From: Antedon mediterranea
Lineage: Eukaryota; Animalia; Echinodermata
Assembly: GCF_964355755.1 (NCBI RefSeq)
Contig: NC_092677.1
Coordinates: 18,374,101 to 18,438,100 of the forward strand
Direction: 5' to 3'
DNA: 64,000 nucleotides
Positions 1 through 57,440 of this stretch are shown here, in pieces (the first letter of the stretch is position 1; each line of letters begins with the position of its first letter). A program made the translations under genes and the position numbers. The notes beneath the pieces are model-generated. The model made no database searches. It saw nothing but the letters and a program-made list of their open reading frames with translations, and was not told the origin of the DNA.

Positions 1-527
1 AAATTACTATTCCCACACATTGAACAAATCCAAATTAACCGGGAATTACATAGTTTGTCTTCAAAAACATCTCTTACACATTTCACATGAAAATATTGAC
101 TACAACAGTCACATTTTATGCAATTGTCGTCTGCTTTCACTTCAATACTACATAAATCGCATGTATCACCAAACTTTGAAGTCTCCTCTGTACCATAAGA
201 TAATATGTTTATGATATCATTAATTATTTCTTTAAATTCAGTTGTATCTTTCATAAATTCACAATTGACATTACCTGTATCATCATTTCTCTCGTCTTTG
301 ACATTCTCAGTTGAACAGCATTTATCAAGTAGGTCCAAGATGTCATTAACAACTATTTTAAATTCTGCTGTCTTATCCATAACTCCATTATTAACATTAC
401 CAGTTGTATTGACAAAAATCTGCTTTTTACTTGTAACTTCTTTATTCACATTCTTACACAAATAAATTATGATTGTAAAGATAATCAACAAAAAGATACC
501 AACTACTGCTATGAATTCCATATCCAT
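1..527 (-). CDS. 5' part of a second Helentron RepHel polyprotein ORF (hydrophobic N-terminus + PHD finger); runs off the left window edge
   Basis: Manual translation from ATG at 527: MDMEFIAVVGIFLLIIFTIIIYLCKNVNKEVTS...CDLCSIEVKADDNCIKCDCCSQYFHVKCVRDVFEDKLCNSRLIWICSMCGNSN, open to position 1 and colinear with residues 1-180 of the 3070-aa ORF. Not in the ORF track because no stop lies in the window. Confidence 0.9.
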   Translation of the reverse strand, partial: MDMEFIAVVGIFLLIIFTIIIYLCKNVNKEVTSKKQIFVNTTGNVNNGVMDKTAEFKIVVNDILDLLDKCCSTENVKDERNDDTGNVNCEFMKDTTEFKEIINDIINILSYGTEETSKFGDTCDLCSIEVKADDNCIKCDCCSQYFHVKCVRDVFEDKLCNSRLIWICSMCGNSN

Positions 528-1094
528 TATTCAAAATTTGTATAAAAAAATAATTTCTTCAAATTTAAAAACTTTGTTTACAAATTAAATTAAAATGTAT
601 TCTGCAATTCCAATGAATATTACAATTAGGTTCTTTTTATCAATTCAAACTTCAAAAAAGAAATCCTTGCTACAACAAAATAAATTATTAAAAATTCCAA
701 AAACAATTCAACTTTATATTGTCTTTTGTTTCTATGACTTTTAACTTTTGTCCTAATTTCTTTTCTCTTTGTCAATATTTTTTTTGTCTGCTTTTTTTCA
801 ATAATTCGATTATACAATTTCACTGAATAAAAAAATTAGCTTCTGCTTAATATTGGCTTGATGAAATACTTTATATTAATTTAAACTTCTCTGTAATACT
901 TGGTTATGCTAAATAGTTTCAGATTCTAATTTTTATTCTTTTTACAATTCTACTTAATAACAGATTTAAATAAAAGTGATCTTTAAATCTTCTTTAATTA
1001 ATTCCTTTGTAATAAACTCTGTTTAATATTTATTTCTTTATAATAAGCTTCTGTTTTATTCTTCAAACTTTTGTTTGTATAATCAAACTTTAAC

Positions 1095-1330
1095 TTTACA
1101 CTTTTGCTTTTGCAAAAAATGGTTTTGTAATAAACTTTTGTTTATTAATTGTTTCCTTGTGATTAACTTCTGTTATCTTCAAGGTTTTACACTTTTGCTT
1201 TTGCAAAAATGGTTTTGTAATAAACTTTTGTTTATTAGTTGTTTCCTTGTGATTAACTTCTGTTATCTTCAAGGTTTTACACTTTTGCTTTTGCAAAATT
1301 GCTTTGTAATAAACTTTTGTTTATTAGTTT
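1095..1330. repeat. ~90-bp tandem repeat, ~2.6 copies
   Basis: tttacacttttgcttttgcaaaa...gtaataaacttttgtttatt recurs at ~1095, ~1186, ~1276. Confidence 0.9.
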
Positions 1331-2074
1331 TTTCTGAATGTTTTAAAGATACTTTTAAAAAATGTTTAAAAAGAAATTGTGCATAAATATTAAAATTCGG
1401 TAACCCCTCGTAGAAACTCTCTTTGGAGAGTGGATCTTTTTCTAAAGACCCGGATCTCTTCTGAGATCCAGTGGGTTTATATAAGACAGTCACCTACAAT
1501 AAAAGAAAAAAAAAAAGAGTTAGTTATTAATTTTAAGATACACTGTACAGTATTAAGAATTACAGTCAAACAATTATAAATTGAATCAGTAGATAAATCA
1601 GTGTTTTTACAAATACCTAAATAATAATATACACATCCCCCCTGTGGAATGTAACATGATCTATTGGGCCTAGCAAAACAAATTAGGACCAACTCATTAC
1701 TAAATTCAGGATAGATCCATTTTATAAAATTGCAAATTTATGTCTGGAGAAACTGACCACCACATTTATGTTAAAAAGGATGATTGTCCCAAATTTTGAA
1801 GTAAATTGTGATAATATATTTGTGACTTTGGTTTATACAATATAAATAAATCACTATAGAAGATATTTTGACCTAAAAATATGTCAAAACTTCATTACAT
1901 GGAATGTGTCGGAAACAAATTCTTTCATAACAATTTCACCTTCAAAATTAATCTGAAAATATGTTTAATTATTCAATGTTCTAATAAAATAGAATTTTAT
2001 ACACAAAAATATTTGGTCACTCAGTATAGTAAATTTACAAACAACACATGTTTATCAATTAAGGGAGGGCATAA

Positions 2075-4665
2075 ATTAAGGAAAATATGTTTTTTCCGTT
2101 TTACAGATAATTTTCTAATACTCACAGCTGTAACTGGCACTGTATATTTTCTGTACAACTACAATCTAAAAAATAAAAGGAAAATCATTAATAATGGCAA
2201 TAAACAACATTAACACTTTTTCAAAATCAACATGCTTCTTAATCAATGTCTGAAAAATTAAGAAATTTTCTCAAAATGACTTTGGGTATTAGACAGCTGG
2301 TTAGGGCCTACATGTTGTCTCAATGCTAATTTCATTTAATATTTTATTCACAAACCATAAAATCTGAATTATGTAAATGTTTCATAATAGAACATGCCTA
2401 CAAAATAACAGGCAACGGTTCACAAAGTAAAGAAAATATGTTGTATCCGTTTAACAGATAATCTACTAATACTCACAGCTGTAGCTGACACTGTATATGT
2501 TCTACAATCTAAAAAAAAAAAACAAGGAAAAACATTAATAATTGGCAATAAACAACATTAACACTTTTTCCAAATCAACATGCTTCTTAATCAATGTCTG
2601 AAAAATTAAGAAATTCCTCAAAATGACTTTGGGTATGAGACAGCTGGTTAGGCCTACATGTTGTCTTAATGCTAATTTCATTTAATATTTTATTCACAAA
2701 CCATAAAATCTGAATGATGTAAATGTTACATAATAGAAAATGCCTACAAAATAACAGGCAACGGTTCACAAAGTAAAGAAAATATGTTTTCTCCGTTTAA
2801 CAGATAATCTACTAATACTCACAGCTGTAGCTGAAACTGTTAATTTTCTACAACCTAAAAAAAAACAAGGAAAAACATTGATAATGGCAATAAACAACAT
2901 TAACCCTTTTGCTCAATCAACATGCTTCTTAATCAATGTCTGAAAAATTAAGAAATTTCCTCAAAATAACTTTGGGTATGGGCCGGCTGATTGGGGTCTA
3001 CATGTTGTCTCAATACTACTTTCATTTAATATCTTATTCAAAAACCATAAAATCTGAATTATTTAAATGTTTCATAATATAAAATGCCTACAAAATAACA
3101 GGCAACAGTTCACAAAGTAAGGAAAATATGTTTTCTCCGTTTAACAGATAATCTACTAATACTCACAGCTGTAGCTGAAACTGTTAATTTTCTACAATCT
3201 AAAAAAAACAAGGAAAAACATTGATAATAGCAATAAACAACATTAACACTTTTTCCAAATCAACATGCTTCTTAATCAATGTCTGAAAAATTAGGAAATT
3301 TCCTCAAAATGACTTTGGGTATGGGCCGGCTGATTGCGGCCTACATGTTGTCTCAATGGTAATTTCATTTAATTGTTTGATCACAAACAATAAAATCTGA
3401 ATTACGTAAATTTTTCATAATAGAAAATGTCTACAAAATAACAGGCAACAGTTCACAAAGTAAGGAAAATATGTTTTCTCCGTTTAACAGATAATCTACT
3501 AATACTCACAGCTGTAGGTGAAACTGTATATTTTCTACAATCTAAAAAAAAAAAAGGAAAAACATTGATAATGGCGATAAACAACATTAACACTTTTTCC
3601 AAATCAACAAGCTTCTTAATCAATGTCTGAAAAATTAGGAAATTTCCTCAAAATGACTTTGGGTATGAGACGGCTGATTAGGGCAGGCAACAGTTCACAA
3701 AGTAAGGAAAATATGTTTTCTCCGTTAAACAAATAATCTACTGATACTCACAGCTGTAGCTGAAACTGTATATTTTCTACAATCTAAAAAAAAACAAGGA
3801 AAAACATTGATAATGGTAATAAAACAACATTAACACTTTTTCCAAATCAACATGCTTCTTAATCAATGTCTGAAAAATTAGGAAATTTCCTCAAAATGAC
3901 TTTGGGTATGGGCCGGCTGATTGCGGCCTACATGTTGTCTCAATGGTAATTTCATTTAATTGTTTGATCACAAACAATAAAATCTGAATTATGTAAATGT
4001 TTCATAATACAAAATGTCTACAAAATAACAGGCAACAGTTCACAAAGTAAGGAAAATATGTTTTCTCCGTTTAACAGATAATCTACTAATACTCACAGCT
4101 GTAGCTCAAACTGTATATTTTCTACAATCTAAAAAAAAACAAGGAAAAACATTGATAATGGTAATAAACAACATTAACACTTTTTCCAAATCAACAAGTT
4201 TTTTAATCAATGTCTGAAAAATTAAGAAATTTCCTCAAAATGACTTTGGGTATGAGACGGCTGATTAGGGCAGGCAACAGTTCACAAAGTAAGGAAATTA
4301 TGTTTTCTCCGTTTAACAGATAATCTACTGATACTCACAGCTGTAGCTGAAACTCTATATTTTCTACAATCTAAAAAAAACAAGGAAAAACATTGATAAT
4401 GGTAATAAACAACATTAACACTTTTTCCAAATCAACACGCTTCTTAATCAATGTCTGAAAAATTAATAAATTTCCTCAAAATGACTTTGGGTATGAAACG
4501 GTTGATTAGGGCAGGCAACAGTTCACAAAGTAAGGAAAATATGTTTTCTCTGTTTAACAGATAATCTACTAATACTCACAGCTGTAGCTGAAACTGTATA
4601 TTTCCTACAATCTAAAAAAAACAAGGAAAAACATTGATAATGGCAATAAACAACATTAACATTTT
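2075..4665. repeat. ~345-bp tandem satellite with ~242-bp deletion variants, ~8.5 units, plus a detached unit at ~5507-5825
   Basis: gaaaatatgttttctccgtttaacagataatctactaatactcacagctg recurs at ~2080, 2431, 2777, 3121, 3463, 3705, 4051, 4293, 4533. Confidence 0.95.
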
Positions 4666-4667
4666 TT

Positions 4668-5215
4668 CATGAGTATATGTAATACTATAATTTGTAATAG
4701 TTTGGAAAATATTATAATTGTCAAGAAGGTGCATGGTTCTTAAATTTAAAAATAAATGTTGTTTTTCGGTAACAACCCGACAAAATCATTAATAAATGTT
4801 GGTCCCTCTCTAATATTTCTATGTTGATTAATTCAATTTTTTAAAACTATATACTATATATTTTGAATATTGATTTTAAAGCATATTGAAATAAATTTTA
4901 CTGTAAAAATGCTGGTTTAGCTTACTGTAATAACACTGGTCACAGACTGACATGTCAGTCTGTGACCAACTCGGTAACAACCAGACACTTTTTAATATCA
5001 TATAAAAATGTAAAAATAAGGTTTTAAAAAAAAGTAACCTCATGAGTGTATGTAAAGCTATAATTTTTAATAGTTTGGAAAATATTATAATTGTCTAGAA
5101 GGTACATGGTTCTTAAATTAAACAAATGTTTTTTGGTAACAACCCGACAAAATTATTAATAATTATGTTGGCCCCTCCTTAATATTTCTATGTTGATTAA
5201 TTCAATTTTTTTAAA
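4668..5215. repeat. ~175-bp direct repeat (4668-4845 / 5041-5215) flanking a perfect 32-bp palindrome (4937-4968)
   Basis: catgagt(a/g)tatgtaa...tagtttggaaaatattataattgtc occurs twice; palindrome TGGTCACAGACTGACA|TGTCAGTCTGTGACCA. Confidence 0.85.
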
Positions 5216-6766
5216 CAAAATCTCAAACAATATATTTAGTTCTTTAATTCTAAAAAGAAATGACATGTATAAATTAGGATTTAGTTGTCTGTTATAGGAT
5301 TTAAGTAAACCTCATATTGTTTTATTTTTTAAGTTTTCTAAATATCATTATTTTAAATGGAAATATGTCTGTATATATCTCTTTTTTTTTTACCACTTAA
5401 ATATCCTGAAAGTATATAACATTAGCTTTAGTTTTATATCAAACATGTTAAGACTGCTAAAAGTTGAACATTTTTAAAATCCCCCAAAAAATTGTGGAAT
5501 TGCCCTACTAATACTCACAGCTGTAGCTGAAACTGTAAATCTTCTGTTAATAAAAAACAATTACAATCTAAAAAATACAAGGAAAAACATTGATAATGGC
5601 AATAAACAACATTAACACTTTTTCCAAATCAACAAGCTTCTTAATCAATGTCTGAAAAATTAGGAAATTTCCTTAAAATGACTTTGGCTATGGGCCAGCT
5701 AATTGGGGCCGACATGTTGTCTCAATGGTAATTTCATTTAATAGTTTGATCACAAACAATAAAATTTGAATTATGTAAATGTTTCATAATAGTATAAATG
5801 CCTACAAAATAACAGGCAACACTTCACTCCCAATCATGAGACCATAAATCATCTCTACAAATTATTTATTTTATGTTCACTATTTACGATATTCTAGAGA
5901 TTATGAAGTACTGTAGAAACAATAATGTTATTACTGTACATGTATCTCTTCCAACTCTTTAGGAACTGATACAACTAAAAACTAGGCCTAGCCCCTACCT
6001 AGGAGGCCTAGGCTAGTAGGCATAGAAGAGAACTTCGCAAAAAGCAGACTCAGCTTGCTAACAATGCTAAGTAGAGTAGGCTATATTATACCGGTATTTA
6101 ATTTTAAGGCATGGTATTCAAGATAAAGTTTGTTAACAAATTAGGAATTAATATATAGTTATAAGCCAGATGCAAAATGGAACTAGGCTAGCGTCACTAT
6201 GCCTCTACTACAGTACTGTACAACTAAACCTAGGCTAGGCTAGGTCTAGGCCTTCCTGAAGAGGTAATCCGGGACACGGCTAGGCCTAACCTAGCTAGGC
6301 CTAGCCTAGAGGGCCTAGGCTAGGCCATTTCATTTTGATGGCAAACACAAAAACAATTAAATATTACAAATCAACAATCCAAATTAATCAAAATATATCT
6401 TACCTATTTCTAACTATTATATTTAACACAATTGTGTTTAAACTTTTTTAATATAGGCTATATGTTCGTTTTAACAATATAAAATTGCAAAGCAATATCG
6501 GGAGCAATACTAGGCTATAATATTACAAATCCAACATGGAGGTGTAACCACGTTGTTCTTTACTAATATGGCACGCAATCGTCGCCAAAAGTAACATAAA
6601 TGCTGTAGGCCCAGACACAATTCACCACACTTTCACCATAAAAGTAGAGAGCGCATAAACATTTTTTCAATGGATGGCATAATCGTTTTTCTGTGCACAA
6701 TATTCTAACGTATGACGTGCGCTGCGGATAACCTAACTCGTCCGTAGTGACGAGTTCAAATCTAGT

Positions 6767-6844
6767 TGGTTATCCGCACTTGGCGGATAACCTCTTGTTA
6801 TTGTCAGGATCTTTTTTTTTTTTTTTTTTTTTTTTCTATGTTAT
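6767..6844 (+). mobile_element. Head fragment of an A-type non-autonomous Helentron whose body resumes at 29601
   Basis: TGGTTATCCGCacttgGCGGATAACC hairpin, T-run, 'ctatgttat'. Intact units read ...ctatgttat-tcttctttctttccc, and 'tcttctttctttccc' resumes at 29601. Confidence 0.85.
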
Positions 6845-8261
6845 TAGTTATCCGCTTAGTAGCGGATAACTCCTTGTAATCGTCCTGTTTCATCAAATTT
6901 TTTTTCTGTATTATACTTCTTTCTTTCTGTCATTTTTGTGCGTCGCGTTTCTCTAAAACGTGTAGACAGAACATATCGTAACTTTGTCAACATATCGACA
7001 TTTACGTGAACTTGTGCACCTCCTATTTTTGAATGACGTCAGAGTTGCGCAACGTGACTTACGCGCGATTTTATGAATTTCAATGATTGATCATAGACTA
7101 AAAACCAAACATAATTTTGTTTTGAAACCTTGTGAAAATTTAAGTCATATCAAGCGCAAACTTTCTATGGATTAAAATTAGCATGTTTCACAAAAAGTTA
7201 CGCGCGCACGCGCGTTTAAAATTTTAACGTGCGAAATATAAACTTCTAATCAACTTTCTATGCGTTTCATGTCATTTTGAGCATGTCAAAAATTCCCACG
7301 CGCGCGAACATTTTTACGCACGCGGTGCACACGTAGCGTTAAAAACATATTTTTTTCGCGTGATTTATGTTTTTTCAGCCTTTTCTAGTAATGTTACCAA
7401 ATTTTAAACAATTTCGACTTAAAATTACGTCATACGAGCACGTCGAATTAGATAATTTGCACGCGTATTTGGTGAAAAAGTTCAAAAATTCGTCAAAATT
7501 ATGCCTATTTTTAAACAGTCATAGATTCTAAACTACATGGAGAACTTTTTTTTAATTACATATTCTGGAAGTTGATGAGTTGTAGATATCGGATCATGCA
7601 TTAATATGGCTAACCGGACATTGTGACGTCATCGTATGGCCACGCGAATATAAAATATAGGATTTTTGTCTCTTTCGTCATAGCTCATCACATTTAATAG
7701 AGCGCATTTCCACTTATTCGTTGTCCATTTTCACCCCGATTTTAATATATTCTAGATCTATCAACTATCTTTTGCATGAATTAAAATTATTTTAATTTTT
7801 TTAACGTCATCATGCCTAAAAATTTAAATTACGTTGGTCATTAATTTCATCTTTACAGTAAATTTTAATCTGTTATAGCTCTTAAGAATAAAATGTGATA
7901 ATCACGATTAAAACGTTTTCAGGAAGCTATTGTATTGTAGATACAAAATCATATGAAAATTGTGCCAATCGAATGTTGTGACGTCATCATATGGCCAGTT
8001 TAATAAAAATGTCGTATTTTCATCTTTTGCGTTATATTTCATTACATTTAAAAGAGCGCGCATCAATATTTCACGTATTCAAATTTCTTCTACAGGTTAA
8101 TATGTTGTTGCTGAGATAATTTCGTTCTGAAATTTCTACTTTTGCATTTCATTTTGAAACCGTCAAGATGTTAAAAATTACAATAAAATACCGGTCCCGT
8201 AATTTCACCTATTTTACACTGTTTGTGATATGTATACAGATTGTGACGAGTTTCATGTCTA
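6845..8261 (+). mobile_element. B-type non-autonomous unit with a deleted tail, forming the left end of the large element; a second diverged body copy follows at 8262-~9445
   Basis: Colinear with the B unit at 54600-56187 until cagattgt (~8244), then jumps to gacgagtttcatgtcta. The body restarts at acttctttctttctgtcatttttgtgcgtcgc (8262), the same as ~6915. Confidence 0.75.
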
Positions 8262-11200
8262 ACTTCTTTCTTTCTGTCATTTTTGTGCGTCGCGTTTCTC
8301 TAAAACTTGTAAACAGAACATATCGTAACTTTGTCAACATATCGACATTCACGTGAACTTGTGCACCTCCTATTTTTGAATAACGTCAGAGTTGCGCAAC
8401 GTGAATTGCGCGCGAATTTATGAATTTCAATGATTGATCATAGATTATAAACCAAACGTTATTTTGTATTGACACTTAGTGAAAATTTAAGTCATATTAA
8501 GGGCAAACTTTCTATGGATTCAAAATGGCATGTTTCACAAGAAGTTATGCGCGCACGCGCATTTAAAATTTCAAAATGCGCAAAATTAATTTCTAATCTA
8601 CTTTCTACGCTGATCATGACATTTTGAGAATGTCAAAAATTCCCATGCGCGCGAACAATTTTACGCGTAAGGTGCGTACAGTGCATGACAATCATGTGTT
8701 TTTCTCTTGAATTATGATTTCACAGCCTTTCCTAGTCATTTTAAAAAGATTAACATCATTTCAAATTAAAATGACGTCATACGAACACGTTGATTTAGAC
8801 CATTTGCGCGCGTTTTAGTTGAAAAAGTTATAAAATATTGTCAAAATAATGCCAATTTTTAATCTATTATAGCTGTTCAGAATCAATAGTTACCCCAATT
8901 TTTTTACTTATTATGTAAGAAGATAAATTGTAGATATGAATTCATGCAGAATTTTTGTCTCTTTCGTTATTGGTCATCATATTCAACAGAACGCATCTGG
9001 CTTATACGTATTCCATTTCCCCCGAGATTTTAATATTATCTACGTTAATCAACTATCTTTCGTATGAGTTAAAAATATTTTAATTTTTGTGAGTCATCAT
9101 GTCTAAAAATGTAAATAACGTGGGTCACTTATTTTCATCTTTACAGTAAATTTCATTCTGTTATAGCTCGTCAGAATAAAAAGTGATAATCATAATTAAA
9201 ACGTTTTCTGGAAGCTATTGGATTGTAGATACGAATCCATGTGAACATTTTGCCAATCAGATGTTGTGACGTCATGATCATATTTTCATATTTAGCGGCA
9301 TAGTTCATCACAATTAAAAGAGCGCGGATCTATATTTTACGCACTGAAATTTCTTTTACGCGTTAATATGTTTTTGCTGAGATAAATTCTTTCCGAAATT
9401 GCTATCTTAGTGTTTCATTTTGATACCGTTGCCATGTTAAAAATGGATCGAATTTCTGTTATGAGTATACAGTACTTGCCTTTACGACGCCTGAGGGAAT
9501 AGAAACTTGTGGAACAGAGATTGGAATGTTCCATTCATCACAAATCAATACATTTGTATAAACGTATAGTAAATGTATCAAAATAGCATTTTTTAAGGAA
9601 AATCGGCCTGTCTTCAACATTATGATGCTGTACTCGAACTGTTCAACCGGTTTTCAGCTATTAAAAATAATTATCGTAGGAGGAGATAGGAAAATGCGAA
9701 GCGTCCTAGTATTATTGTGTGCGGGTATTTTTCAAGTTGGACATCCATTAGACAGTGTATACTACGATCGGAAAACACCCCTATTTGGGGCAAATCGTTG
9801 AACCTAAATTCGTTTTAATCGTCAATAACTAATTATCTAACTCAATTTAATTAGTAAACAGGGTTACATCAGGTGGTTAAAATCAGTACCAAAAGTACGA
9901 ACCAACTTTATATACCATCGAGTAAAAATTCTAGAAATAAACCGCGATTTATCGAATTTTGCCCTTACGTAAATTTATATATAGATTATATTCATCTTTA
10001 AAAAATGTGTACATCTAATTATTTTGTTTCAACGTACGTATTTATTTCAACGTACGTGTGCATGCTACACGGTACGTTTATATTGTAACATGCATGCACG
10101 TTGTTATGGCAGAAATATGGTACAATATATTATTATATTCAATTTTCTTTCGTCTAATTTAGAAATAATTATTTTATTAGGTTATCATGTCCAAACAATG
10201 GAATAACTTGGTTCATTTAGTTTATCATATAGTATTTTTCCATCTCTCATAGCTTTTCCAAATTTAAAGTGATATTCATGATTAAAACTTATTATGGAAG
10301 CTGTTTAAATTGTAGATATGAATTCATATTCACATTTCCTTATTGGATGTTGTGACGTATTCGGACAGGCAAAGTAAAAAAGTCAGATTTCAGTTTGATT
10401 GAAGATCATAATTCAAGAGAAATAAACATGATTTTCACACTCTGTGGGCGCATGGGCATGTTTGACAAAATAAGTCGGACTTTCATTTCTTGCGTCATAG
10501 TTTGTGTCATTTAAAAGAGCACGTATGTGGAATATTATGTTATATCAAAACAAACGTCATGTTGATATGTTTTTATTTCCATTTCATTCTGCAATTTGTC
10601 ATTAGGTTTTCTATCCTGTATTTCAAGTATGCAACTATGTGTGTAAATAATTGCATTAACTCTATAGATTAAACTCGTTTCATTTAATAGGTTTACACAA
10701 ATAAGAATTGTATTTTTGTTTATACGTATCAATTAATTCGTCTATGAATAAACAATAATACTAATTTTGGTTTATACAAAATTCGTACCCCATATAATGT
10801 ATTATCTATTCCAATAGAATTGGAACCGGCCGTATCATCATACATAACTCATGTAGAGTTCACTTTTGTTACTTTTACTTTTTATTCCTATTTGTACTTT
10901 TATTGTTTTATTTGCTAATTAGATATCTGTATTATAGGGTAATGCGTTTAAGAGCTTCGGCTCATTGCATACCCGTTTTGTATCAAATACGTTTATAGAA
11001 ATATTCTTGTGAAAGAAATACTGTATTATTTTATTGTTGATACAAATAAATGGTACGTATATAGTACCACGAATGATGAATAACAACATCGTTAAGCACA
11101 AAGAGTTCTTTTCTGAAGTCCAAAATTATCTCGTTTGTTAATAACTGGCACTGCCTTGGTTTCTTGTAATGGACCCCATTTTGCTTGACCACAACATTGA

Positions 11201-11779: not shown

Positions 11780-12748
11780 GATGAAAATAATGTAATTTGT
11801 ATAGGCATACGATGGTAAATAAACCTGATTTGCATAATTATATCATTATACAATTATACCGTAAATGTATTTGCATTTAATGTCATTATACTATATATCT
11901 AATTAAGCAAATATAAAAATAGATATTTCAGTCTTCAATATCTGGCCAATATAACAACTCATTTACTGTCACATTTATTATAAAACCTCGTTTAAAAATT
12001 AAATACCATTTTTTAGTTGGCGATTTAGTCTACCAACCCCCCCCCCCCCCCACCTCTTCGGCGCGCCGGCCGGCTCCCAAAACAAGAAGAAAACCGATTT
12101 GAACTACGTCACGCGTCATAGCGACAATGGGAATTCACCACTACTCCATGGAATATTTAGGGGCCTAGTAGCACTTCGGTCACGCTGTGAAGTACGTGGT
12201 TTCGTCGCGATCATACTTTGCTGTTTGAAATATGAAAGTTACTGTACCGCCATGGTTCTACACACATTTTGAAGTTTTTGTTTGTTGTTAATCGAAAGTA
12301 CTTCACTGTTAATAAATTAATACTGATCTTGTTCCAATAATAAGCGATTAAACTTATGTAGCCTAGGAGGCCTATAAAAGGCTATATATACTCCTAGGCC
12401 TAGGGCCTAGTAGTGATGACTAGCTTAGTCTAGCTAGGCCTAGGGCCTAGGAGTATATATAGCCATATAGTCATCTGATGCGTAAAAAGTTTTGTTGTAA
12501 CAAAAAAATGGAAAATAATATAAATGCGCAGTTTCATACGTCACTCTTTCGCGATTGCATAAAAGTTTTGTTGTAACAAAATATAATATTAATGCGGAAA
12601 ATTGTGTCTGTTTTGACTCTAGGTAGGCCCTAGCCTAAGGCCTACTTCCTTCTTTATGAAATTGAATCAGATTAGAAGTATAGCTCTAGCTAGGCCTAGT
12701 ATTTTAAATTTGGAACTATGACTAAAGTTTGGTTTAAGAATACGGGCA
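11780..12748. mobile_element. Decayed, internally rearranged relative of the Harbinger-type MITE at 32543-33469
   Basis: 11785-12035 matches ~33110-33310 in direct orientation; ~12095-12330 matches ~32840-33100 inverted; 12713-12748 (gaactatgactaaagtttggtttaagaatacgggc) matches its right TIR. Confidence 0.65.
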
Positions 12749-13293: not shown

Positions 13294-13297
<4 letters not shown>

Positions 13298-13398: not shown

Positions 13399-13440
<42 letters not shown>

Positions 13441-44619: not shown

Positions 44620-44680
44620 TGGTTATCCGCACTTGGCGGATAACCCCTTGTTATTGTCAGGATCTTTTTTTTTTTCTTTT

Positions 44681-44725
44681 TGGTTATCCGCACTTGGCGG
44701 ATAACCTCTTGTTATTGTCAGGATC

Positions 44726-44756
<31 letters not shown>

Positions 44757-45900
44757 TCTATGTTCTTCTTTCTTTCCACGAATTTTGTTCGCAGCGTATC
44801 TCTAACTCTGGCCAACATATGATTGTATAACTTTGTCAAAAGATTTCCCTGTAGCTGTAGATGTGCAAGAAACTTTTTTTTATGAATTTTGAGTTGCGCA
44901 GCGTAAGTTACGCGCGATTTTATGAATTTAAATGATTGATCATAGATTAAAAACCGAAAGTTATTTTGTATTGAAACTTTGTGAAAATTTAAGTCATATC
45001 AAGCGCAAACTTTCTATGGATTAAAAATTGCATGTTTCACAGAAAGTTACGCGCGCACGCGCGTTTAAAATTTCAAAATGCAAAAAATCAACTTCTAATC
45101 AATTTTCTACGCGTTTCATATCATTTTGAGCATTTCAAAAATTCCCAGGCTTGCGCAATTTTTTTACGCGCGCGTGCGCACGTAGCGCAAAAAAATCTTT
45201 TTTTTGCTTGATTTTTGTTTTTTCTGTCTTTTATAATATATTTACCAATTTTCAATCAATTTTGCCTTAAAATCTCGTCATACGAGCACGTAGAATTAAA
45301 CAATTTGCGCGCAATTTTGATGAAAAAGTCCAAAAATTTGTCAAAATTATGCCTTTTTTTAAACAGTCATAGATTCTAAACTACGTGGTAAACTTTTTTA
45401 TAATTACATATTCTGGTAGTAGATGAGTTGTAGATATCGAATCATGTATCAATATGGCTAACAGGACATAGTGACGTCATCGTATGGCCACTCAAATATA
45501 AAATATAGGATTTTTGCCTCTTTCGTCATAGCTCATCACATTTAATAGAGCGCATCTCCACTTATCCGAATTCCATTTCCCCCCATTTTTGTATATTGTC
45601 TATGCCAATCAATTATCTTTCGCATGATATACCGTTTTTAAAATTGTGATGACGTCATCATGTCCAAAAGCGTCAATAACTTGGGCCATTTATTTTCACA
45701 TATTCTTCACTGTATGTAGTACGTATACAATATATAGTGTATACCGTGTATACTTAGACGTGACGTAAAATAGAGAGCGCACTAACATTTTTTCAATGGC
45801 ATAATGGTTTTCTCTGCGCAATATTCTAACGTATGACGTGCACGTGGCGTTTGCTCTGCGGATAACCTAACTCGTCCGTAGTGACGAGTTCAAATCTAGT
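44681..45900 (+). mobile_element. A-type unit nested in the T-run of another A-type unit (44620-44680 + 45901-47049)
   Basis: Two heads 61 bp apart; after the tail at 45900 the sequence resumes with T-run + ctatgttcttc and no head. Confidence 0.85.
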
Positions 45901-48900
45901 TTTTTTTCTATGTTCTTCTTTCTTTCCACGATTTTTGTTCGCAGCGTATCTCTAATTCTGGCCAACATAGGATTGTATAACTTTGACAAAAGATTGCTCT
46001 GTAGCTGTAGATGTGCAAGAAACTTTTTTTTTTCAATTTCGAGTCGCACAGCGTAAGTTACGCGCGATTTTATGAATTTCAATGATTGATCATAGATTAA
46101 AAACCCAAAGTCATTTTCTATTGAAACTTGGTGAAAATTTAAGTTATATTATGCGCAAACTTTCTATGGATTAAAAATGGCATGTTTCACATAAAGTGAC
46201 GCGCGCACGCGCATTCAAAATTTCAAAATGCGCAAAACTCATTTCTAATCAACTTTCTACGCGTTTCATGTCATTTTGAGCATTTCAAAAATTCCCAAGC
46301 GTGCGCAATATTTTTACGCGCGCGTGCGCAAATAGCGCAAAAACATCATTTTTTTGCTTGATTTTTGTTTTTTCAGCCTTCTCTAGTAATTTTATCAATT
46401 TTCAATCAATTTTTACTTAAAATCACGTCACACGAGCACGTAGAATTGGATAATTTGCACGCGTTTTTGATGAAAAACTTCAAAAATTCGTCAAAATTAT
46501 ACCTTTTTTTGAACAGTCATAAATTCTAAACTACGTGGTGTACTTTTTTGAAATTACATATTCTGGAAGTAGATGGGTTGTATTTCTTGAATCATGCATT
46601 GATATGGCTAACCGGACATTGTAACGTCATCGTATGGCCACCCGAATACAAAATATAGGATTTTTTTCTCTTTCATCATAGCTCGTCAAATTTAATAGAG
46701 CGCATCTCTACTTATCCGTATTCCATTCCCACCATTTCTTTATTTTGTCCAGGTCAATCAATTATCTTTCACATGATTTACGATTTTTAAAATTGTGATG
46801 ACGTCATCATGGTCAAAAGCGTCATTAACTTTGGTCACTTATTTTCACCTATTCTGAACTGTATGTAGTACGTATACAGTATAGTGTATACCATTATATA
46901 CTTTTACGTGACGCAAAATAGAGAGCGCACTAACATTTTTTCAATGGCATAATCGTTTTTTGGCGCGCAATATTCTAACGTATGACGTGCACGTGGCTTT
47001 TGCGCTGCGGATAACCTAACTCGTCCGTAGTGACGAGTTCAAATCTAGTTGGTTATCCGCACTTGGCGGATAACCTCTTGTTATTGTCAGGATCTTTTTT
47101 TTTCTCTTTCTCTTTTTTCTTCTATTTTCTTCTTTCTTTCCACGATTTTTGTTCGCAGCGTATCTCTAATTCTGGCCAACATATGATTGTATAACTTTGT
47201 GAAAAGATAGCCCTGTAGCTGTAGATGTGCAAGAAACTTTTTTTTTCGAATTTCGAGTTGCGCAGCGTAAGTTACGCGCAATTTTATGAATTTCAATGAT
47301 TGATCATAGAATAAAAACTAAAAGTCATTTTGTATTGAAACTTGGTGAAAATTTAAGTCATAACATGCTCAAACTTTCTATGGATTAAAAATGGCATGTT
47401 TGACAGAAAGTTACGCGCGCACGCGCGTTTAAAATTTCAAAATGCGAAAATTCAATTTCTAATCAACTTTCTACGCGTTTCATGTCATTTTGAGCATTTC
47501 AAAAATTCCCACGCGTTCGCAATTTTTTTACGCGCGCGTGCGCACGTAGCGCAAAAACGTCTTTTTTTTGCTTGATTTTTGTTATTTCAGCCTTTTCTAG
47601 TAAATTTATCAATTTTCAATCAATTTCGACTTAAAATCACGTCATACGAGCACGTAGAATTGAACAATTTAGGCACGTTTTTGATGAAAAAGTTCAAAAA
47701 TTTGTCAAAATTATGCCTTTTTTTAAACATTCATAGATTCTAAACTCCGTGGTGAACATTTTTAAAATTTCAGATTCTGGAAGTAGATGAATTGTAGATA
47801 TCAAATCATGCATGAATATGGCTAACCGGACATTGTGACGTCATCATATGGCCACTCGAATATAAAATATAGGATTTTTGTCACTTTCGCATAGCTCATC
47901 ACATTTAATAGAGCGCATCTCCACTTATCCGTGTTTCATTTCCTCCCATTTTGTTATATTGTCTAGGCCAATCGATTATCTTTCGCATAATCTACGATTT
48001 TTTAAATTGTGATGACGTCATCATGTCCAAAAGCGTCAATAACTTTGGTCACTTATTTTCACCTATTCTGCACTGTATGTAGTACGTATACAATATAGTG
48101 TTATACCGTATATACTTAGACGTGACGCAAAATAGAGAGCCCACTAACATTTTTTCAATGCCATAATCGTTTTTTTGCGCGCAATATTCTAACGTATGAC
48201 GTGCACGTGGCTTTTGCGCTGCGGATAACCTAACTCGTCCGTAGTGACGAGTTCAAATCTAGTTGGTTATCCGCACTTGGCGGATAACCCCTTGTTATTG
48301 TCAGGATCTTTTTTATTTTTTTTATTTTTTTTCTCTTTTTTTTTCTATTTTCTTCTTTCTTTCCACGATTTTTGTTCGCAGCGTATCTCTAATTCTAGTC
48401 AACATAAGATTCTATAACTTTGTCATAAGATTGCCCTGTAGCTGTAGATGTGCAAGAAACTTTTTTTTATGAATTTGGAGTCGCGCAGCGTAAGTTACGC
48501 GCGATTTTATGAATTTCAATGATTGATCATAGATTGAAAACCAAAAGTCATTTTCTATTGAAACTTCGTGAAAATTTAAGTTATATCATGCGCAAACTTT
48601 CTATGGATTAAAAATGGCATGTTTGACATAAAGTTACGCGAGCACGCGCGTTTAAAATTTCAAATTGCGAAATATCCATTTCTAATCAACTTTCTACGCG
48701 TTTCAGGGCATTTTGAGCATTTCAAAAATTCCCAGGCGTGCGCATTTTTTTTACGCGCGCGTGCGCACGTAGCGCAAAAACATCTTTTTTTTGCTTGATT
48801 TTTGTTTTTTCAGCCTTTTCTAGTAAATTTACCAACTTTCAATCAATTTCGACTTAAAATCACGTCATACAAGCACGTAGAATTGAACAATTTGCGCGCG

Positions 48901-50652
48901 TTTTTGAAGAAAAAGTTCAAAAATTTGTCAAAATTATGCCTTTTTTAAAACAGTCATAGATTGTAAACTACGAGGTGAACTTTTTTTAAATTACACATTC
49001 TGGAAGTTGATGAGTTGTAGATATCGAATCATGCATCGATATGGCTAACAGGACATAGTGACGTCATCGTATGGCCACTCGAATATAAAATATAGGATTT
49101 TTGTCTCTTTCGTCATAGCTCATCACATTTAATAGAGCGCATCTCCACTTATCCGAATTCCATTTTCCCCCATTTTTTTATATTGTCTATGCCAATCAAT
49201 TATCTTTTGCATGATATACCGTTTTTAAAATTGTGATGACGTCATCATGTCCAAAAGCGCCAATAACTTGGGCCACTTATTTTCACATATTCTTCACTGT
49301 ATGTAGTACGTATACAATGTATAGTGTATACTGTGTATACTTAGGCGTGACGTAAAATAGAGAGCGCACTAACATTTTTTCAATGGCATAATGGTTTTCT
49401 CTGCACAATATTCTAACGTATGACGTGCACGTGGCGTTTGCTCTGCGGATAACCTAACTCGTCCGTAGTGACGAGTTCAAATCTAGTTTTTTTTTTTTTT
49501 TTTTTTCTATGTTCTTCTTTCTTTCCACGAATTTTGTTCGCAGCGTATCTCTAACTCTGGCAAACATATGATTGTATAACTTTGTCAAAAAATTGCCCTG
49601 TAGGTGTAGATGTGCAAGAAACTTTTTTTTATGAATTTTGAGTTGCGCAGCGTAAGTTACGCGCGGTTTTATGAATTTAAATGATTGATCATAGATTAAA
49701 AACCGAAAGTCATTTTGTATTGAAACTTGGTGAACATTTAAGTCATATCAAGCGCAAACTTTCTATGGATTAAAAATGGCATGTTTCACAGGAAGTTACG
49801 CGCGCACGTGCGTTTAAAATTTCAAAATGCAAAAAATCAACTTCTAATCAACTTTCTACGCGTTTCATGTCATTTTGAGCATTTCAAAAATTCCCAGGCA
49901 TGCGCAATTTTTTTACGCGCGCGTGCGCACGTAGCGCAAAAACATCTTTTTTTTGTTTGATTTTTGTTTTTCCAGCCTTTTCTAGTAAATTTACCAACTT
50001 TCAAACAATTTGGACTTAAAATCACGTCATACGAGCACGTAGAATTGAAAAATGTTCGCGTGTTTTTGATGAAAAAGTTCAAAAATTCCTGAAAATTATG
50101 CCTTTATTTAAAAAGTCATAGATTCTAAACTCCGTGGTGAACATTTTTAAAATTTCAGATTCTGGAAGTAGATGAGTTGTAGATATCAAATCATGCATCC
50201 ATATGGCTCACCGGACATTGTGACGTCATCGTATGGCCACTGGAATATAAAATATAGGATTTTTGTCTCTTTCGCATAGCTCATCACATTTAATAGAGCG
50301 CATCTCTACTTATCCGTATTGCATTTCCCCCCATTTTGTTATATTGTTTAGGTCAATCAATTATCTTTCGCATGGTTAACAATTTTTAAGATTGTTATGA
50401 CGTCATCATTTGCAAAAGCGTCAATAACTTTGGTCACTTATTTTCACCTATTCTGCACTGTATGTTGTACGTATACAGTATATAGCGTATACCGTATATA
50501 CTTAGACGTGACACAAAATAGAGGGCTCACTAACATTTTTTTCAATGGCATAATCGTTTTTCTGCGCGCAATATTCTAACTTATGTGTCATGCGCGTGGC
50601 TTTTGCGCTGCGGATAACCTAACTCGTCCGTAGTGACGAGTTCAAATCTAGT

Positions 50653-52216
50653 TGGTTATCCGCAACGAAGTTGCAGGATAACCTCTTGTGATTGTACGAA
50701 ATCATTCTGTATGATTTTTGTGTAACGCTTTTCTCTAAAACTCGCAAACATAACATTTCGGTAACTATCTTAACATATTGACATTTACGTAACGTCGTCA
50801 AGCGAAGCTTTTCATGACGTTTACAATTGCGCAACGTGACTTACGCGCGATTTAACGATTTTGTCGTATTTAACATAGCTCGACAACCAAATAACATTTC
50901 AACTTGAAACTTTGCAAAAGTTTAATTTATATCATGCGCTAACTTTCTGTTGAAAAAAAATTCCGTGTTTTACACAAAGTTACGCGCGCACGCGCATTTA
51001 AAGTTTCAAAATGCGCAAAATTAATTTCTAATCAACTTTCTACGCGTTTCATGTCGTTTTAAGCATGTCAAAAATTTCCACGCGTGCGCACATTTTTACG
51101 TGTGCGGTGCGCACGTAGCATTGAAAACGTATTTTTTTCGCGTGATTTATGTTTTTCCAGCCTTTTCTAGTAATTTTACAAAATTTTAAACAATTTCGAC
51201 TTAAAGATACGTCATACGAGCACGTCGAATTGGACAATTTGCGCGCGTTTTTTATGAAAAGGTTAAAAAATTTGTTTAAAATATGCCTTTTTTTAAACAG
51301 TCGTACTTTCTAAACTAGACGGTCAAATTTTTGTGGATGACATTTTCTAGAAGTAGATGAGCTGTAGATGTCGGATCAGGTACTAATATGGCTAACCGGA
51401 CATTGTGACGTCATCGTATGGCCACGCGAATATAAAATTTAGGATTTTTGTATCTTTCGTCATAGCTCATCACATTGAATAGAGCGCATCTCCACTTATC
51501 CGTTTTCCATTTTCACCCCGATTTTAATATTGTCTAGGTCAATCAAGTATCTTTCGCATGAGTTAAAAATATTTTAATTTTGTTGACGTCATCATGCCTA
51601 AAAATTTAAATCACGTGTGGCATTAATTTCATCTTTACAGTAAATTTTAATCTGTTATAGCTCGTAAGAATAAAATGTGATAATCACGATTAAAACTTTC
51701 TCTGGAAGCTATTGGATTGTAGATACGAAATTATGTAAAAATGTTGCCAATCGGATGTTGTGACGTCATTATATGGCCAGTTAAATAAAAAAGGTCGTAT
51801 TTTCATCTTTTGCGTCATAATTCATTACATTTAAAAGAGCGCGAATCAATATTTCACGTATTCAAATTTCTTCTACACGCTAATACGTTGTTGCTGAGAT
51901 AATTTCCTTTCGGAATTGCTATCTTCGCGTTTCATTTTAAAACCGTCAACATGTTAAAAATTGCAATAAATAGCGGTCCCGTAATTTCACCTATTCTACA
52001 CTGTATGTGATATGGATACAGATTATACTGTGTATACTATATATGAATTTAAATAATAAAATTCAGCAATAACAAACATATCATATTCTTCAGTTCAGGT
52101 CATAATGCCAACGTGAACACTTCCTTTTGTCCTCAACCTATCCCCTTAATGTTAATGTTGCACCACTTGCGCGGCGGATAACCAAACTCGTCAAAGTGAC
52201 GAGTTACATGTCTAGT
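50653..52216 (+). mobile_element. C-type non-autonomous Helentron unit (~1.56 kb)
   Basis: Head TGGTTATCCGCaacgaagttgcaGGATAACC; tail GCGGATAACCAaactcgtcaaagtgacgagttacatgtCTAGT; B-like body with distinct subterminal sequences. Confidence 0.8.
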
Positions 52217-54599
52217 TGGTTATCCGCACTTGGCGGATAACCCCTTGTTATTGTCAGGATCTTTTTTTTTCTTTTTTTTTTTTTTCTATCTTATTCTTCT
52301 TTCTTTCCCGGAATTTTGTTCGCAGCGTATCTCTAATTCTGGCCAATATAAGATTGTGTAACTTTGTCATAAGATTGACCTCTAGCTGTAGATGTGCAGG
52401 ACGTTTCGTTTTTTAACTTTAGAGTCGCGCAGCGTAAGTTACGCGCAATTTTATGAATTTCAATGATTGATCATAGATTAAAAATCAAAAGTCATTTTGT
52501 ATTGAAACTTGGTGAAAATTTAAGTCATATCAAGCGCAAACTTTCTATGGATTAAAAATGGCATGTTTTACAAAAAGTTACGCGTGCACGCGCGTTTAAA
52601 ATTTCAAAATGCGAAAAATCAATTTCTAATCAACTTTCTACGCGTTTCATGTCATTTTGAGCATTTGAAAAATTCCCACGCGTGCGCAATTTTTTTACGC
52701 GCGCGTGCGCACGTAGCGCAAAAACATCATTTTTTTGCTTGATTTTTGTTTTTCCTGTCTTTTTTAGTAAATTTACCAACTTTCAAACAATTTCAACTTA
52801 AAATCACGTCATACGAGCACGTAGAATTAAACAATTTACGCGCATTTTTGATGAAAAAGTTCAAAAATTTGTCAAAATTATGCCTTTTTTTAAACAGTCA
52901 TAGATTCTAAACTACGTGGTGAACTTTTTTAAAATTACATATTCTAAATGTAGATGAGTTGTAGATATCAAATCATGCATCCATATGGCTAACCGGACAT
53001 TGTGACGTCATCGTATGGCCACTGGAATATAAAATATAGGATTTTTGTCTCTTTCGCATAGCTCATCACATTTAATAGAGCGCATCTCTACTTATCCGTA
53101 TTCCATTTCTCCCCATTTTGTTATATTTTCTAGGTCAATCAATTATCTTTCGCATGGTTAACAATTTTTAAGATTGTTATGACGTCATCATTTGCAAAAG
53201 CGTCAATAACTTTGGTCACTTATTTTCACCTTTTCTGAACTGTATGTAGTACGTATACAGTATAGCGTATACCGTATATACTTAGACGTGACACAAAATA
53301 GAGGGCTCACTAACATTTTTTTCAATGGCATAATGGTTTTCTCTGCGCAATATCCTAACGTATGACGTGCACGTGGCGTTTGCTCTGCGGATAACCTAAC
53401 TCGTCCGTAGTGACGAGTTCAAATCTAGTATTTATTTGTTTCCTTCCACCCTTCTCCCCCATTTTTTGTGCGCAGCGTATCTCTAATTCTGGCCAACATA
53501 TGATTGTATAACTTTGTCAAAAGATTGCCCTGTAGCTGTAGATGTGCAAGAAACTTTTTTTTTCAAATTTCGAGTCGCGCAGCGTAAGTTACGCGCGATT
53601 TTGTGAATTTCAATGATTGATCATAGAATAAAAACTAAAAGTCGTTTTGTATTGAAACTTGGTGAACATTTAAGTCATATAATGCGCAAACTTCCTATGG
53701 ATTAAAAATGGCATGTTTCATAAAAATTTACGCGCGCACGCGTATTTAAAAATTCAAAATGCGAAAAATCAATATCTAATCAACTTTCTACGCGTTTCAT
53801 GTCATTCTGAGCATTTCAAAAATTCCCACGCGTGCGCAATTTTCTTACGCGCGCGTGCGCACGTAGCGCAAAAACATCTTTTTTTTGCTTGATTTTTGTT
53901 TTTTCTGTCTTTTATAATAAATTTACCAATTTTCAATCAATTTTGCCTTAAAATCTCGTCATACGAGCACGTAGAATTAAACAATTTGCGCGCAATTTTG
54001 ATGAAAAAGTCCAAAAATTTGTCAAAATTATGCCTTTTTTTAAACAGTCATAGATTCTAAACTACGTGGTAAACTTTTTTATTATTACATATTCTGGTAG
54101 TAGATGAGTTGTAGATATCGAATCATGTATCAATATGGCTAACAGGACATTGTGACGTCATCGTATGGCCACTGGAATATAAAATATAGGATTTTTTTCT
54201 CTTTCGTATAGCTCATCACATTTAATAGAGCGCATCTCCACTTATCCGTATTCCATTGCCCTCCATTTCTTTATATTGTCTAGGTCAATCAATTATCTTT
54301 CGCATGATTCACCATTTTAAAAATTGTGATGACGTTATCATGTCCAAAAGCGTCAATAACTTTGGTCACTTATTTTCACCTATTCTGCACTGTACGTAGT
54401 ACGTATACAGTATATAGTGTATACCGTATACACTTTGACTTGACACAAAATAGAGAGCGCACTAACATTTTTTCAATGCCATAATCGTTTTTTTGCCCGC
54501 AATATTCTAACGTACGACGTGCACGTGGCTTTTGCGCTGCGGATAACCTAACTCGTCCGTAGTGACGAGTTCAAGTCTAGTTTTTTTTTTTTTCTTTAT

Positions 54600-56187
54600 T
54601 AGTTATCCGCTTAGTAGCGGATAACTCCTTGTAATCGTCCTGTTTCATCATATTTTTTTTTTTTTTCTGTATTATACTTATTTCCTTCCGTCATTTTTGT
54701 GCGTCGCGTTTCTCTAAAACGTGTAAACAGAACATATCGTAACTTTGTCAACATATCGACATTTACGTGAACTTGTGCACCTCCTATTTTTGAATGACGT
54801 CAGAGTTGCGCAACGTGAATTACGCGCGATTTTATGAATTTCAATGATTGATTATAGACTAAAAACCAAACATAATTTTGTTTTGACACTTTGTGAAAAT
54901 TTAAGTCACATCAAGCGCAAACTTTCTATGGATTAAAAATAGCACCATTCACAAAAAGTTACGCGCGCACGCGCGTTTAAAATTTTAGAGTGCGAAAAAT
55001 CAACGTCTTATCAACTTTCTATGCGTTTCATGTCATTTTGAGCATGTCAACAATTCCCACGCGCGCGAAACTTTTTACGCACGCGGTGCACACGTAGCGT
55101 TAAAAACATATTTTTTTCGCGTGATTTATGTTTTTTCAGCCTTTTATAGTAATGTTACCAACTTTTAAACAATTTCGACTTAAAATTACGTCATACGAGC
55201 ACGTCGAATTAAATAATTTGCACGCGTTTCTGGTGAAAAAGTTCAAAAATTCGTCAAAATTATACCTATTTTTAAACAGTCATAGATTCTAAACTACATG
55301 GAGAACTTTTTTTTAATTACATATTCTGGAAGTTGATGAGTTGTAGATATCGAATCATGCATTAATATGGCTAACCGGACATTGTGACGTCATCGTATGG
55401 CCACGCAAATATAAAATATAGGATTTTTGTCTCTTTCGTCATAGCTCATCACATTTAATAGAGCGCATCTCCACTTATTCGTTGTTCATTTTCACCCCGA
55501 TTTTAATATCTTCTAGGACTATCAACTATGTTTTGCATGAATTAAAAATTTTTTAATTTTTTTAACGTCATCATGCCTAAAAATTTAAATTACGTTGGTC
55601 ACTAATTTCATCTTTACAGTAAATTTTAATCTGTTATAGCTCGTAAGAATAAAATGTGATAATCACGATTAAAACGTTTTCAGGAAGCTATTGTATTGTA
55701 GATACAAAATCATGTGAAAATTGTGCCAATCGAATGTTGTGACGTCATCATATGGCCAGTTAAATACAAAAAGTCATATTTTCATCTTTTGCGTTATATT
55801 TCATTACATTTAAAAGAGCGCGCATCAATATTTCACGTATTCAAAATTCTTCTACACGTTAATATGTTGTTGCTGAGATAATTTCATTCTGAAATTTCTA
55901 CTTTTGCATTTCATTTTGAAACCGTCAAGATGTTAAAAATTACAATAAAATACGGGTCCCGTAATTTCACCTATTTTACACTGTTTGTGATATGTATACA
56001 GATTGTACTGTTACTATGTATATGACACAAAATAACAGAATTCAGAAATAACAACATATCATATTCTTCAGTTCAGGTCATAATGCCTTAATATTTTTCT
56101 GTGTGCAATATTCTAACGTATGACGTGCACGTGGGCGTTTGTCGAGCGGATAACTAACTCGTCAAAGTGACGAGTTTCATGTCTAGT
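54600..56187 (+). mobile_element. B-type unit nested in a headless A-type unit at the ttat|tcttc site
   Basis: Left flank tttctttat, right flank tcttctttctttccacg; head identical to that at 6845. Confidence 0.85.
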
Positions 56188-57440
56188 TCTTCTTTCTTTC
56201 CACGAATTTTGTACGCAGCGTATCTCTAATTCTGGCCAACATAAGATTGTATAACTTTGTCATAAGATTGCCCTGTAGCTGTAGATGTGCAAGAAACTTT
56301 TTTTTATAAATTTTGAGTTGCGCAGCGTAAGTTACGCGCGGTTTTATGAATTTCAATGATTGATCATAGATAAAAAACCGAAAGTCATTTTGTATTGAAA
56401 CTTGGTGAACATTTAAGTTATATCAAGCGCAAACTTTCTATGGATTAAAAATGGCAGGTTGCACAAAAAGTTACGCGCGCACGCGCGTTTAAAATTTCAA
56501 AATGCAAAAAATCAACTTCTAATCAACTTTCTACGCGTTTCATGTCATTTTGAGCATTTCAAAAATTCCCAGGCATGCGCAATTTTTTTACGCGCGCGTG
56601 CGCACGTAGCGCAAAAACATCTTTTTTTTGTTTGATTTTTGTTTTTCCAGCCTTTTCTAGTAAATTGACCAACTTTCAAACAATTTGGACTTAAAATCAC
56701 GTCATACGAGCACGTAGAATTGAAACATTTGCGCGTGTTTTTGATGAAAAAGTTCAAAAATTCGTGAAAATTATGCCTTTATTTAAAAAGTCATAGATTC
56801 TAAACTCCGAGGTGAACATTTTTAAAATTTCAGATTCTGGAAGTAGATGAGTTGTAGATATCAAGTCATGCATCCATATGGCTAACCGGACATTGTGACG
56901 TCATCGTATGGCCACTGGAATATAAAATATAGGATTTTTGTCTCTTTTGCATAGCTCATCACATTTAATAGAGCGCATCTCTACTTATCCGTATTGCATT
57001 TCCCCCCATTTTGTTATATTGTCTAGGTCAATCAATTATCTTTCGCATGGTTAACAATTTTTAAGATTGTTATGACGTCATCATTTGCAAAAGCGTCAAT
57101 AACTTTGGTCACTTATTTTCACCTATTCTGCACTGTATGTAGTACGTATACAGTATATAGCGTATACCGTATATACTTAGACGTGACGCAAAATAGAGGG
57201 CTCACTAACATTTTTTTCAATGGCATAATCGTTTTTCTGCGCGCAATATTCTAACTTATGTGTCATGCGCGTGGCTTTTGCGCTGCGGATAACCTAACTC
57301 GTCCGTAGTGACGAGTTCAAATCTAGTTCCGATATTGTTCCTGATAACAAAGAAGCAGATTAAATATAGTTGTTTATTTGACCCATTTGGCTTAGATGCC
57401 TATGCCTAGAAAGATTTTCTATGATACTACCTACTCATTA

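Follow-up and report, generated by a model that had tools for sequence, protein, structure and literature searches.

Positions 1-57326 of a 64-kb stretch of the Antedon mediterranea genome (Echinodermata; NC_092677.1, 18,374,101 to 18,438,100, forward strand; hereafter, the window) are occupied by a chain of Helentrons, transposable elements (TEs) whose large, autonomous types carry the RepHel transposase. Judging from its junctions and nested copies, this mixed chain probably grew as the transposase inserted elements, in many separate events, at the heads (left ends) of resident elements or a short way inside them. Small units make up most of its members, comprising 17 A bodies (~1.2 kb) and five B/C units (1.4-1.6 kb). 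Types A, B and C are interspersed, and elements of autonomous type are also members of the chain. The window holds 24 right ends, of which 23 are intact (subterminal inverted repeat (subTIR), hairpin and CTAG) and one is damaged (8243-8260). All 24 lie on the plus strand, and a search of the minus strand of the window for family right ends found none. There are 19 heads, each with a 10-bp stem.

Junctions and insertion sites

An exact tail-TT-head junction is present at 16 of the 22 intact tails that enter family DNA (13 A, two B, and one C). A unit offers ~326 TT/AA sites (~206 TT and ~120 AA); under random TT/AA targeting inside the unit, 16 exact junctions of 22 would be expected with P ~4e-36, the uniform orientation with P ~4e-5, and the three exact junctions among the five B/C units with P ~3e-7. 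At the other 7 of the 23 internal junctions, a tail runs into a headless body (8261, where the tail is damaged, 29600, 45900, 49487, 53429, 54581, and 56187). All six inexact junctions with an intact tail fall within the first 110 bp of the unit (P 5e-6; 2.5e-4 with T4-run weighting). These inexact sites lie 45-80 bp inside the resident head, and the target is therefore better termed a head zone than "the end."

At the exact junction within 47003-47080, the subTIR of the tail is predicted to pair with that of the next head across the hairpin (-19 kcal/mol), a fold that is possible only in chained copies or circles.

The chain is built of the following parts, in which units carry a letter for their type and a number.

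1-6765, plus strand: right part of autonomous-type element 1, with an A-type tail at 6726-6765; shares colinear patches with sequence upstream of the second RepHel frame; head outside the window.
3-530, minus strand: first 176 codons of the element 1 RepHel, of a different subfamily from that of element 2.
6766-6843, plus strand: head and poly-T of A unit a02, parted from its body by a 22.8-kb insertion; the two flanks of the insertion agree with the heads of a11 and a12, which are uninterrupted.
6844-29599, plus strand: apparent composite B-type autonomous Helentron at a TT of the a02 head, supported by an empty-site match; B head at 6846, B tail at 29561-29599, inner terminator (8243-8260) deleted.
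6844-8260, plus strand: B unit b03, 96% identical to b25, which has lost its 3' subTIR and hairpin arm by deletion and probably provides the left arm of the composite.
14736-23975, minus strand: RepHel, an uninterrupted frame of 3079 codons, reversed relative to the element termini.
24484-25238, no strand: foldback formed by 21-bp repeats, within the composite.
26038-27242, no strand: unrelated inverted-repeat element flanked by a 4-bp repeat, within the composite (ends inspected).
27785-28863, no strand: unrelated inverted-repeat element flanked by an 8-bp repeat, within the composite (ends inspected).
29600-30732, plus strand: body and tail of A unit a02 (tail and alignment).
30733-36548, plus strand: four A units, a05-a08, with exact junctions (tails and alignment).
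32543-33469, no strand: unrelated inverted-repeat element inside a06, with a 39-bp perfect inverted repeat and a TTA duplication.
36549-38136, plus strand: intact B unit b09, both junctions exact (head and tail comparison).
38137-43025, plus strand: four A units, a10-a13, with exact junctions (tails and alignment).
43026-44618, plus strand: intact B unit b14, both junctions exact (head and tail comparison).
44619-47048, plus strand: an A head (44619-44679) whose poly-T holds A unit a16 (44680-45899), followed by headless body a17 (45900-47048); a common polymorphism distinguishes the two heads, and the empty site was compared.
47049-49486, plus strand: A units a18 and a19, with exact junctions (tails).
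49487-50651, plus strand: headless A unit a20, which begins in poly-T and is 97.5% identical to a24 (tail and identity).
50652-52215, plus strand: intact C unit c21, both junctions exact (head and tail comparison).
52216-54580, plus strand: A unit a22 and headless A unit a23, the latter from 53429 with a single T at the junction (tails).
54581-57326, plus strand: headless A unit a24 (54581-54598 and 56187-57326) with nested B unit b25 (54599-56186); the empty site matches a06, and the tail is the final one of the chain.

Three nested insertions with matching paralogous empty sites, all within ~80 bp of the resident head, show insertion directly. The block 6844-29599 interrupts a02 at a TT that follows the poly-T of its head; a11 and a12, with uninterrupted heads, provide the empty sites. 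Unit b25 lies at the same TT in another A body (empty site in a06), so that the TT behind the A head has been used twice in the window, while a16 sits in the poly-T of another A head. Each of these insertions gained one TT and nothing longer; the terminal T's are indistinguishable from a 2-bp duplication, an ambiguity that is also described in PMC4067079. Since one TT is added per element without a longer duplication, each exact arrival recreates the tail-TT-head junction. By comparison, no family insertion was found in the 1.1-kb bodies of the chain, and the sole insertion in an A body is the unrelated element in a06. A contig joint from X1, a weak case with a shorter side of 22 letters, sets a tail against a body variant absent from the window at this same TT. 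Because its first B unit has no terminator and its large element has no head of its own, the block 6844-29599 can be read as a single composite of 22.8 kb whose left arm was renewed, comparable to the elements with two left ends in PMC11417382 and PMC5148889. Some units probably arrived as composites.

Composition of the chain and its transposase

The chain elements are Helentrons (HLE2) as these are defined in the accessible portions of PMC4067079 and PMC11417382, an assignment based on features and nearest protein matches. That definition includes subTIRs, a 3' stem-loop, and insertion at TT without clear duplication (PMC4067079; PMC11417382), and DUF6570 serves as a Helentron marker (PMC11417382). 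Short subTIRs, a left-end inverted repeat, and a 3' stem-loop are all present in the chain, and the A tail has an 8-bp stem. The 3079-codon RepHel contains a herpes-tegument-like domain, an OTU protease domain, DUF6570 (residues 1465-1591), Rep (HUH, Y2), a PIF1 helicase, and a C-terminal endonuclease (Exo_endo_phos, 2869-3056); the Pfam families Helitron_like_N and PIF1 were matched. It also contains the catalytic motifs, HUH at 1886-1896, YxxxY at 2084, and Walker A at 2437. The nearest protein match of this element 2 RepHel is P0002, labeled Antedon mediterranea, at 98.9%. Only 6765 bp and 176 codons of element 1 fall in the window, and the start of its RepHel is 91-92% identical to P0004, P0023, and P0005 and 65% identical to P0001. 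Both RepHel frames lie on the minus strand, opposite to the head-to-tail direction. A scan of metagenome contigs with RepHel returned 60 pattern matches and no relative.

The first-pass annotation had described a chain in one orientation whose neighbors belong to different subfamilies; the single orientation holds throughout 1-57326, and types A, B, and C are interspersed there. Its picture of exact tail-to-head chaining fits most elements and the 16 exact junctions; it does not extend to the seven junctions that enter headless bodies or to the three elements nested in a resident head region. The absence of host DNA between elements is confirmed at the boundaries, none of which contains an unrelated spacer on inspection, although many kilobases of unassigned non-coding DNA lie in the two large elements and unrelated inverted-repeat elements lie inside the chain. 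Of the two autonomous copies that had been counted as members, both are of autonomous type, but the first has only 6.8 kb in the window and the second, 22.8 kb long, is composite and interrupts an A unit.

Several repeats accompany these elements. Tandem repeats of 343 and 241 bp occupy 2073-4668, upstream of the first RepHel; they are an old part of the elements, because a related copy lies at ~25416-25717, upstream of the second RepHel. A 22-bp repeat in ten copies (24046-24266) is found just upstream of the RepHel start, and a near-perfect 268-bp palindrome (13286-13553) lies beside a long AT run. The composite holds pieces of the inverted-repeat family that interrupts a06 (12094-12750 vs. 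32541-33468, 76-91% identity). B units, unlike A units, have an internal duplication of ~350 bp (64% identity; 43701-44402), with further traces in the large element at 10139-10574. The last tail, which ends at 57326, runs into non-family DNA at 57327. From 25 bp past it, a perfect 2156-bp tandem duplication (57352-61663) follows, which is either very recent or an assembly artefact, and a short repeat that appears by eye to be tRNA-derived is found at 57440-57520 with a copy near 59596.

Relatedness of the units and number of founders

Pairwise identity among the 17 A bodies ranges from 0.863 to 0.975 (mean 0.899), with a20 and a24 as the best pair (97.5%). A simple rolling-circle concatemer does not fit these values, as the bodies are not the near-identical copies of a single donor. 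Adjacent units being closest relatives in a higher-order pattern had been set beforehand as the refuting test for repeated insertion. Neighboring A bodies are 0.900 identical vs. 0.899 overall (p 0.33), and the A bodies show no lag period, no trend with distance (Mantel p 0.39), and no duplicated multi-unit block; repeated insertion withstood this test. Haplotypes stop at the junctions: their correlation across the 13 A-to-A junctions is -0.20, and none of the seven pairs that are alike at the 3' end and have A successors continues alike past the junction, in a test of limited power whose within-unit control was positive in two of four block pairs. Conversely, a05/a22 and a07/a10 are alike in their 5' parts despite upstream neighbors of different types. 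An unequal-crossover satellite would be expected to have neighbor similarity, a higher-order period, and duplicated blocks, all of which are missing; the recombination among monomers that is also typical of such satellites is present in the form of mosaic units (p 0.0005). Three slices of the alignment give three different trees, and a whole-unit tree is therefore not meaningful. The insertion inside a06 was excised from the alignment with two extra bases, which leaves the counts unaffected.

The terminal bases hold one private change in 1329, compared with 19.6 expected from the interior rate (P 6e-8), while the best interior window of 44 columns holds four. Read as a clock, this conservation would place mutation since the last transposition below ~0.4%. 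Each 200-column window nevertheless contains 11-16 distinct haplotypes (97% cut-off) among the 17 A units, a diversity that, given the bound on mutation, requires many founders. The chain as a whole holds at least 11-12 distinct A haplotypes, five B/C units, and two autonomous types. Growth in place was simulated with real units as founders (60 runs per setting, mutation-free after founding). Arrays from 4-6 founders ended with 4-6 haplotypes, a positive correlation across junctions, and 31-75% of 3' tracts continuing. In-place conversion may act on top of many founders. Units b09, b14, and c21 share only 82-87% identity, each has retained the head and tail of its own type, and each is bounded by two exact junctions. 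Homologous crossover cannot account for their placement, and separate, base-precise events that needed no long homology are indicated.

In an integron-like cassette array, polar addition at a single site would make unit order a record of age. Here the distance to the majority letter drops along the chain (rho -0.64, p 0.005), as do private changes (-0.53, p 0.027), while a CpG measure is not significant; the units are not independent and nesting breaks the polarity. Among such non-independent units, these trends hint that the right side of the chain is younger. The first-pass annotation had proposed repeated independent insertions that recreate their target, in a safe haven that records family history. 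Many arrivals and the empty sites agree with the former, once the target is moved from the end of the element to its head zone. The safe-haven and history-record ideas are unproven, as the gradient is weak and the units are recombinant mosaics.

Origin of the chain and comparison with known systems

The proposed mechanism begins with RepHel binding the hairpin of a resident head and nicking the preceding TT, as it would when starting transposition. The genomic tail-TT-head junction has the layout of a joined-end circle, and so would be a favored RepHel substrate; the Helraiser transposase, for instance, cleaves a joined-end junction precisely (PMC5876387). Joining of the incoming strand at the TT nick could then give an exact junction in the same orientation and recreate the target, while slipping of the nick into the T-rich stretch behind the head could give a nested copy. 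Read-through of the terminator would move composites and could account for headless bodies without an orphan head. Recombination between copies of the family, either prior to arrival or later, is the likely source of the mosaic interiors. A broader claim, that the RepHel of this lineage acts as an integrase specific for the left-end junction of its own elements and that mixed arrays, which the family builds and goes on extending, are its main habitat genome-wide, is tentative and somewhat doubtful.

Several points weigh against growth by insertion at heads. The choice of the origin end is taken over by analogy from canonical Helitrons. Four A bodies in 45900-57326 are headless, compared with only one orphan head. 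The A units are mosaic (PHI-like statistic 0.232 vs. 0.380, p 0.0005), with incompatibility that grows with distance, and the clock drawn from terminal conservation presumes that the ends were not homogenized after arrival. Simulations with 14-17 founders and in-place conversion leave no continuing tract with a probability of 0.12-0.25, and the lag test is weaker once conversion enters. A single-depth X2 contig of 790 bp has a tail followed by ~550 unlike letters, and other contig joints set a head or a tail against body positions. This contig and these joints show that targeting is not exclusive, and copies standing alone and insertions without targeting probably occur as well. Family copies abound in three samples, which carry two species labels between them: contigs matching one 1.2-kb stretch number 15,511 (X1), 3,058 (X2), 1,476 (X5), and 10,957 (X8). 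The contig depth table sums overlapping contigs and gives no share of chained ends.

Mixed multimers, joined off the chromosome or at other loci and imported in one or a few large events, would share the same chemistry and hence the same junctions. They could form when an excised tail is joined to the head of another strand, or by unit-precise exchange between junctions by the transposase. All ends look equally young, and the headless bodies without orphan heads, together with the 22.8-kb composite, suggest that multi-part blocks are likely to move together, as in the composite Helitrons described in PMC5148889 and PMC4224331. We nonetheless regard import as unlikely, since one event would have had to bring in more than 57 kb, with at least two autonomous subfamilies mixed in it, the three nested insertions call for steps of their own, and the weak divergence gradient better fits stepwise growth. 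Somewhat less credible again is the expansion of a few founders (a rolling-circle tandem or a double insertion) in place, by unequal crossover and gene conversion in the manner of a young satellite. TE dimers that grow into arrays by unequal exchange have been described (PMC5932611), and such growth would suit the a20/a24 pair and the mosaic units, in which tracts of 200-800 bp at 97-100% identity link non-adjacent A units. The simulations with 4-6 founders, however, depart from what was observed (13 haplotypes, a correlation of -0.20, and 0 of 7 tracts continuing), later mutation (upper bound 0.4%) could not supply the diversity without hitting the ends, and neither a duplicated multi-unit block nor a period is present; a founder number of six or fewer is largely disfavored.

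The other alternatives are far less probable. A plain preference for TT or poly-T in a TE-tolerant region, with the head poly-T as lure and no end targeting, would be in keeping with the T-rich targets of Helentron-associated interspersed elements (HINEs; PMC4067079; PMC7492417) and would explain the orientation and part of the nested sites. It is improbable because the exact junction offers only two T's, one of ~326 sites, and yet accounts for 16 of 22 junctions, and because the 1.1-kb bodies lack family insertions. Element circles integrated by homologous single crossover would, with no targeting at all, produce units that are chimeric, uniformly oriented, and exactly joined. This earns even less credence: rotated monomers, taken over the 13 A-A junctions, match a third unit at 0.940 vs. 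0.943 (p 0.72), in no intact small unit is a head of type A or B combined with a tail of the other of these two types, and for the B/C units such crossover is disfavored. The slightest chance is given to assembly of the chain from dispersed copies. Although the family is very repetitive (15,511 X1 contigs on 1.2 kb), a perfect 2156-bp duplication begins 25 bp beyond the last tail, and no listed contig spans the examined stretch, mis-joining could not create ~10% unit divergence, distinct poly-T tracts, nesting, and empty sites.

Growth by insertion at resident heads would bear on several questions. Helentron target choice is unsettled beyond "TT or T-rich," and the chain offers a specific site, namely the head junction of the element itself, together with a second, reused TT behind the head. 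Head-to-tail Helitron arrays are usually ascribed to rolling-circle run-on, to which the chain is a counter-case. If the preference is general, it would allow arrays to grow without hitting genes, supply a source of composite elements, and provide, from an animal genome, a naturally occurring HUH enzyme whose landing sequence is defined. If the integrase reading holds, relaxase integration at oriT would have a counterpart in eukaryotes, and transposase-driven tandem arrays would not need target duplication.

Known systems share many of these features. The comparisons here draw on the accessible portions of the cited papers and also cover PMC13085455, PMC12001565, PMC11934779, and PMC13286980. 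Published cases include Helitrons in tandem arrays, Helitrons that adjoin others to which they are unrelated, self-insertion close to the 5' end, composites, and reversed open reading frames (ORFs). A long, base-precise, mixed Helentron chain with many arrivals was not found in the literature searched, and subscription papers and supplements may hold cases. Helentrons/HLE2 and HINEs, including DINE-1, are alike in subTIRs, the left-end inverted repeat, and the 3' stem-loop, and Helentrons/HLE2 also in insertion between two T's without clear duplication and in a RepHel with endonuclease, OTU, and DUF6570; there, as here, HINEs are internal deletions of a large element (PMC4067079; PMC11417382). 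In the accessible text of these papers, however, Helentrons are interspersed at T-rich sites and clustering is suggested as a possibility, in contrast to the long chain of mixed subfamilies described here. The Fusarium FoHeli self-insertions and HLE2-reverse (PMC5148889) and HelenXT233 with its two left ends (PMC11417382) are similar in self-insertion near the 5' end, in composites with two 5' termini, and in the reversed ORF, and include one three-copy tandem. As far as these sources describe them, they are isolated cases of two or three copies, while the window has 24 ends, 16 exact junctions, and a nested site that is reused.

Rolling-circle Helitron arrays of bats and plants (cited in PMC4067079, PMC5148889, and PMC5876387) have circle-like head-to-tail junctions in one orientation. 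One donor should yield near-identical copies, whereas the best pair here is 97.5% identical, the mean is 90%, and three small and two autonomous types are present. In the double-insertion TE tandems of Drosophila, as in the chain, a target that survives insertion allows a further one, and tandems can seed satellites; those tandems rest on a duplicated host target motif, while the recreated target in the chain is only TT (PMC5932611). A recreated TT would account for the specificity only if the end of the element itself were also recognized. The nearest demonstrated reaction to the mechanism proposed above is site-specific integration by TrwC into oriT, in which this HUH enzyme links the arriving DNA to a copy of the site that it nicks (PMC3264647). 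TrwC is a bacterial conjugative relaxase whose reaction was shown experimentally, whereas the corresponding reaction of RepHel is proposed from sequence alone.

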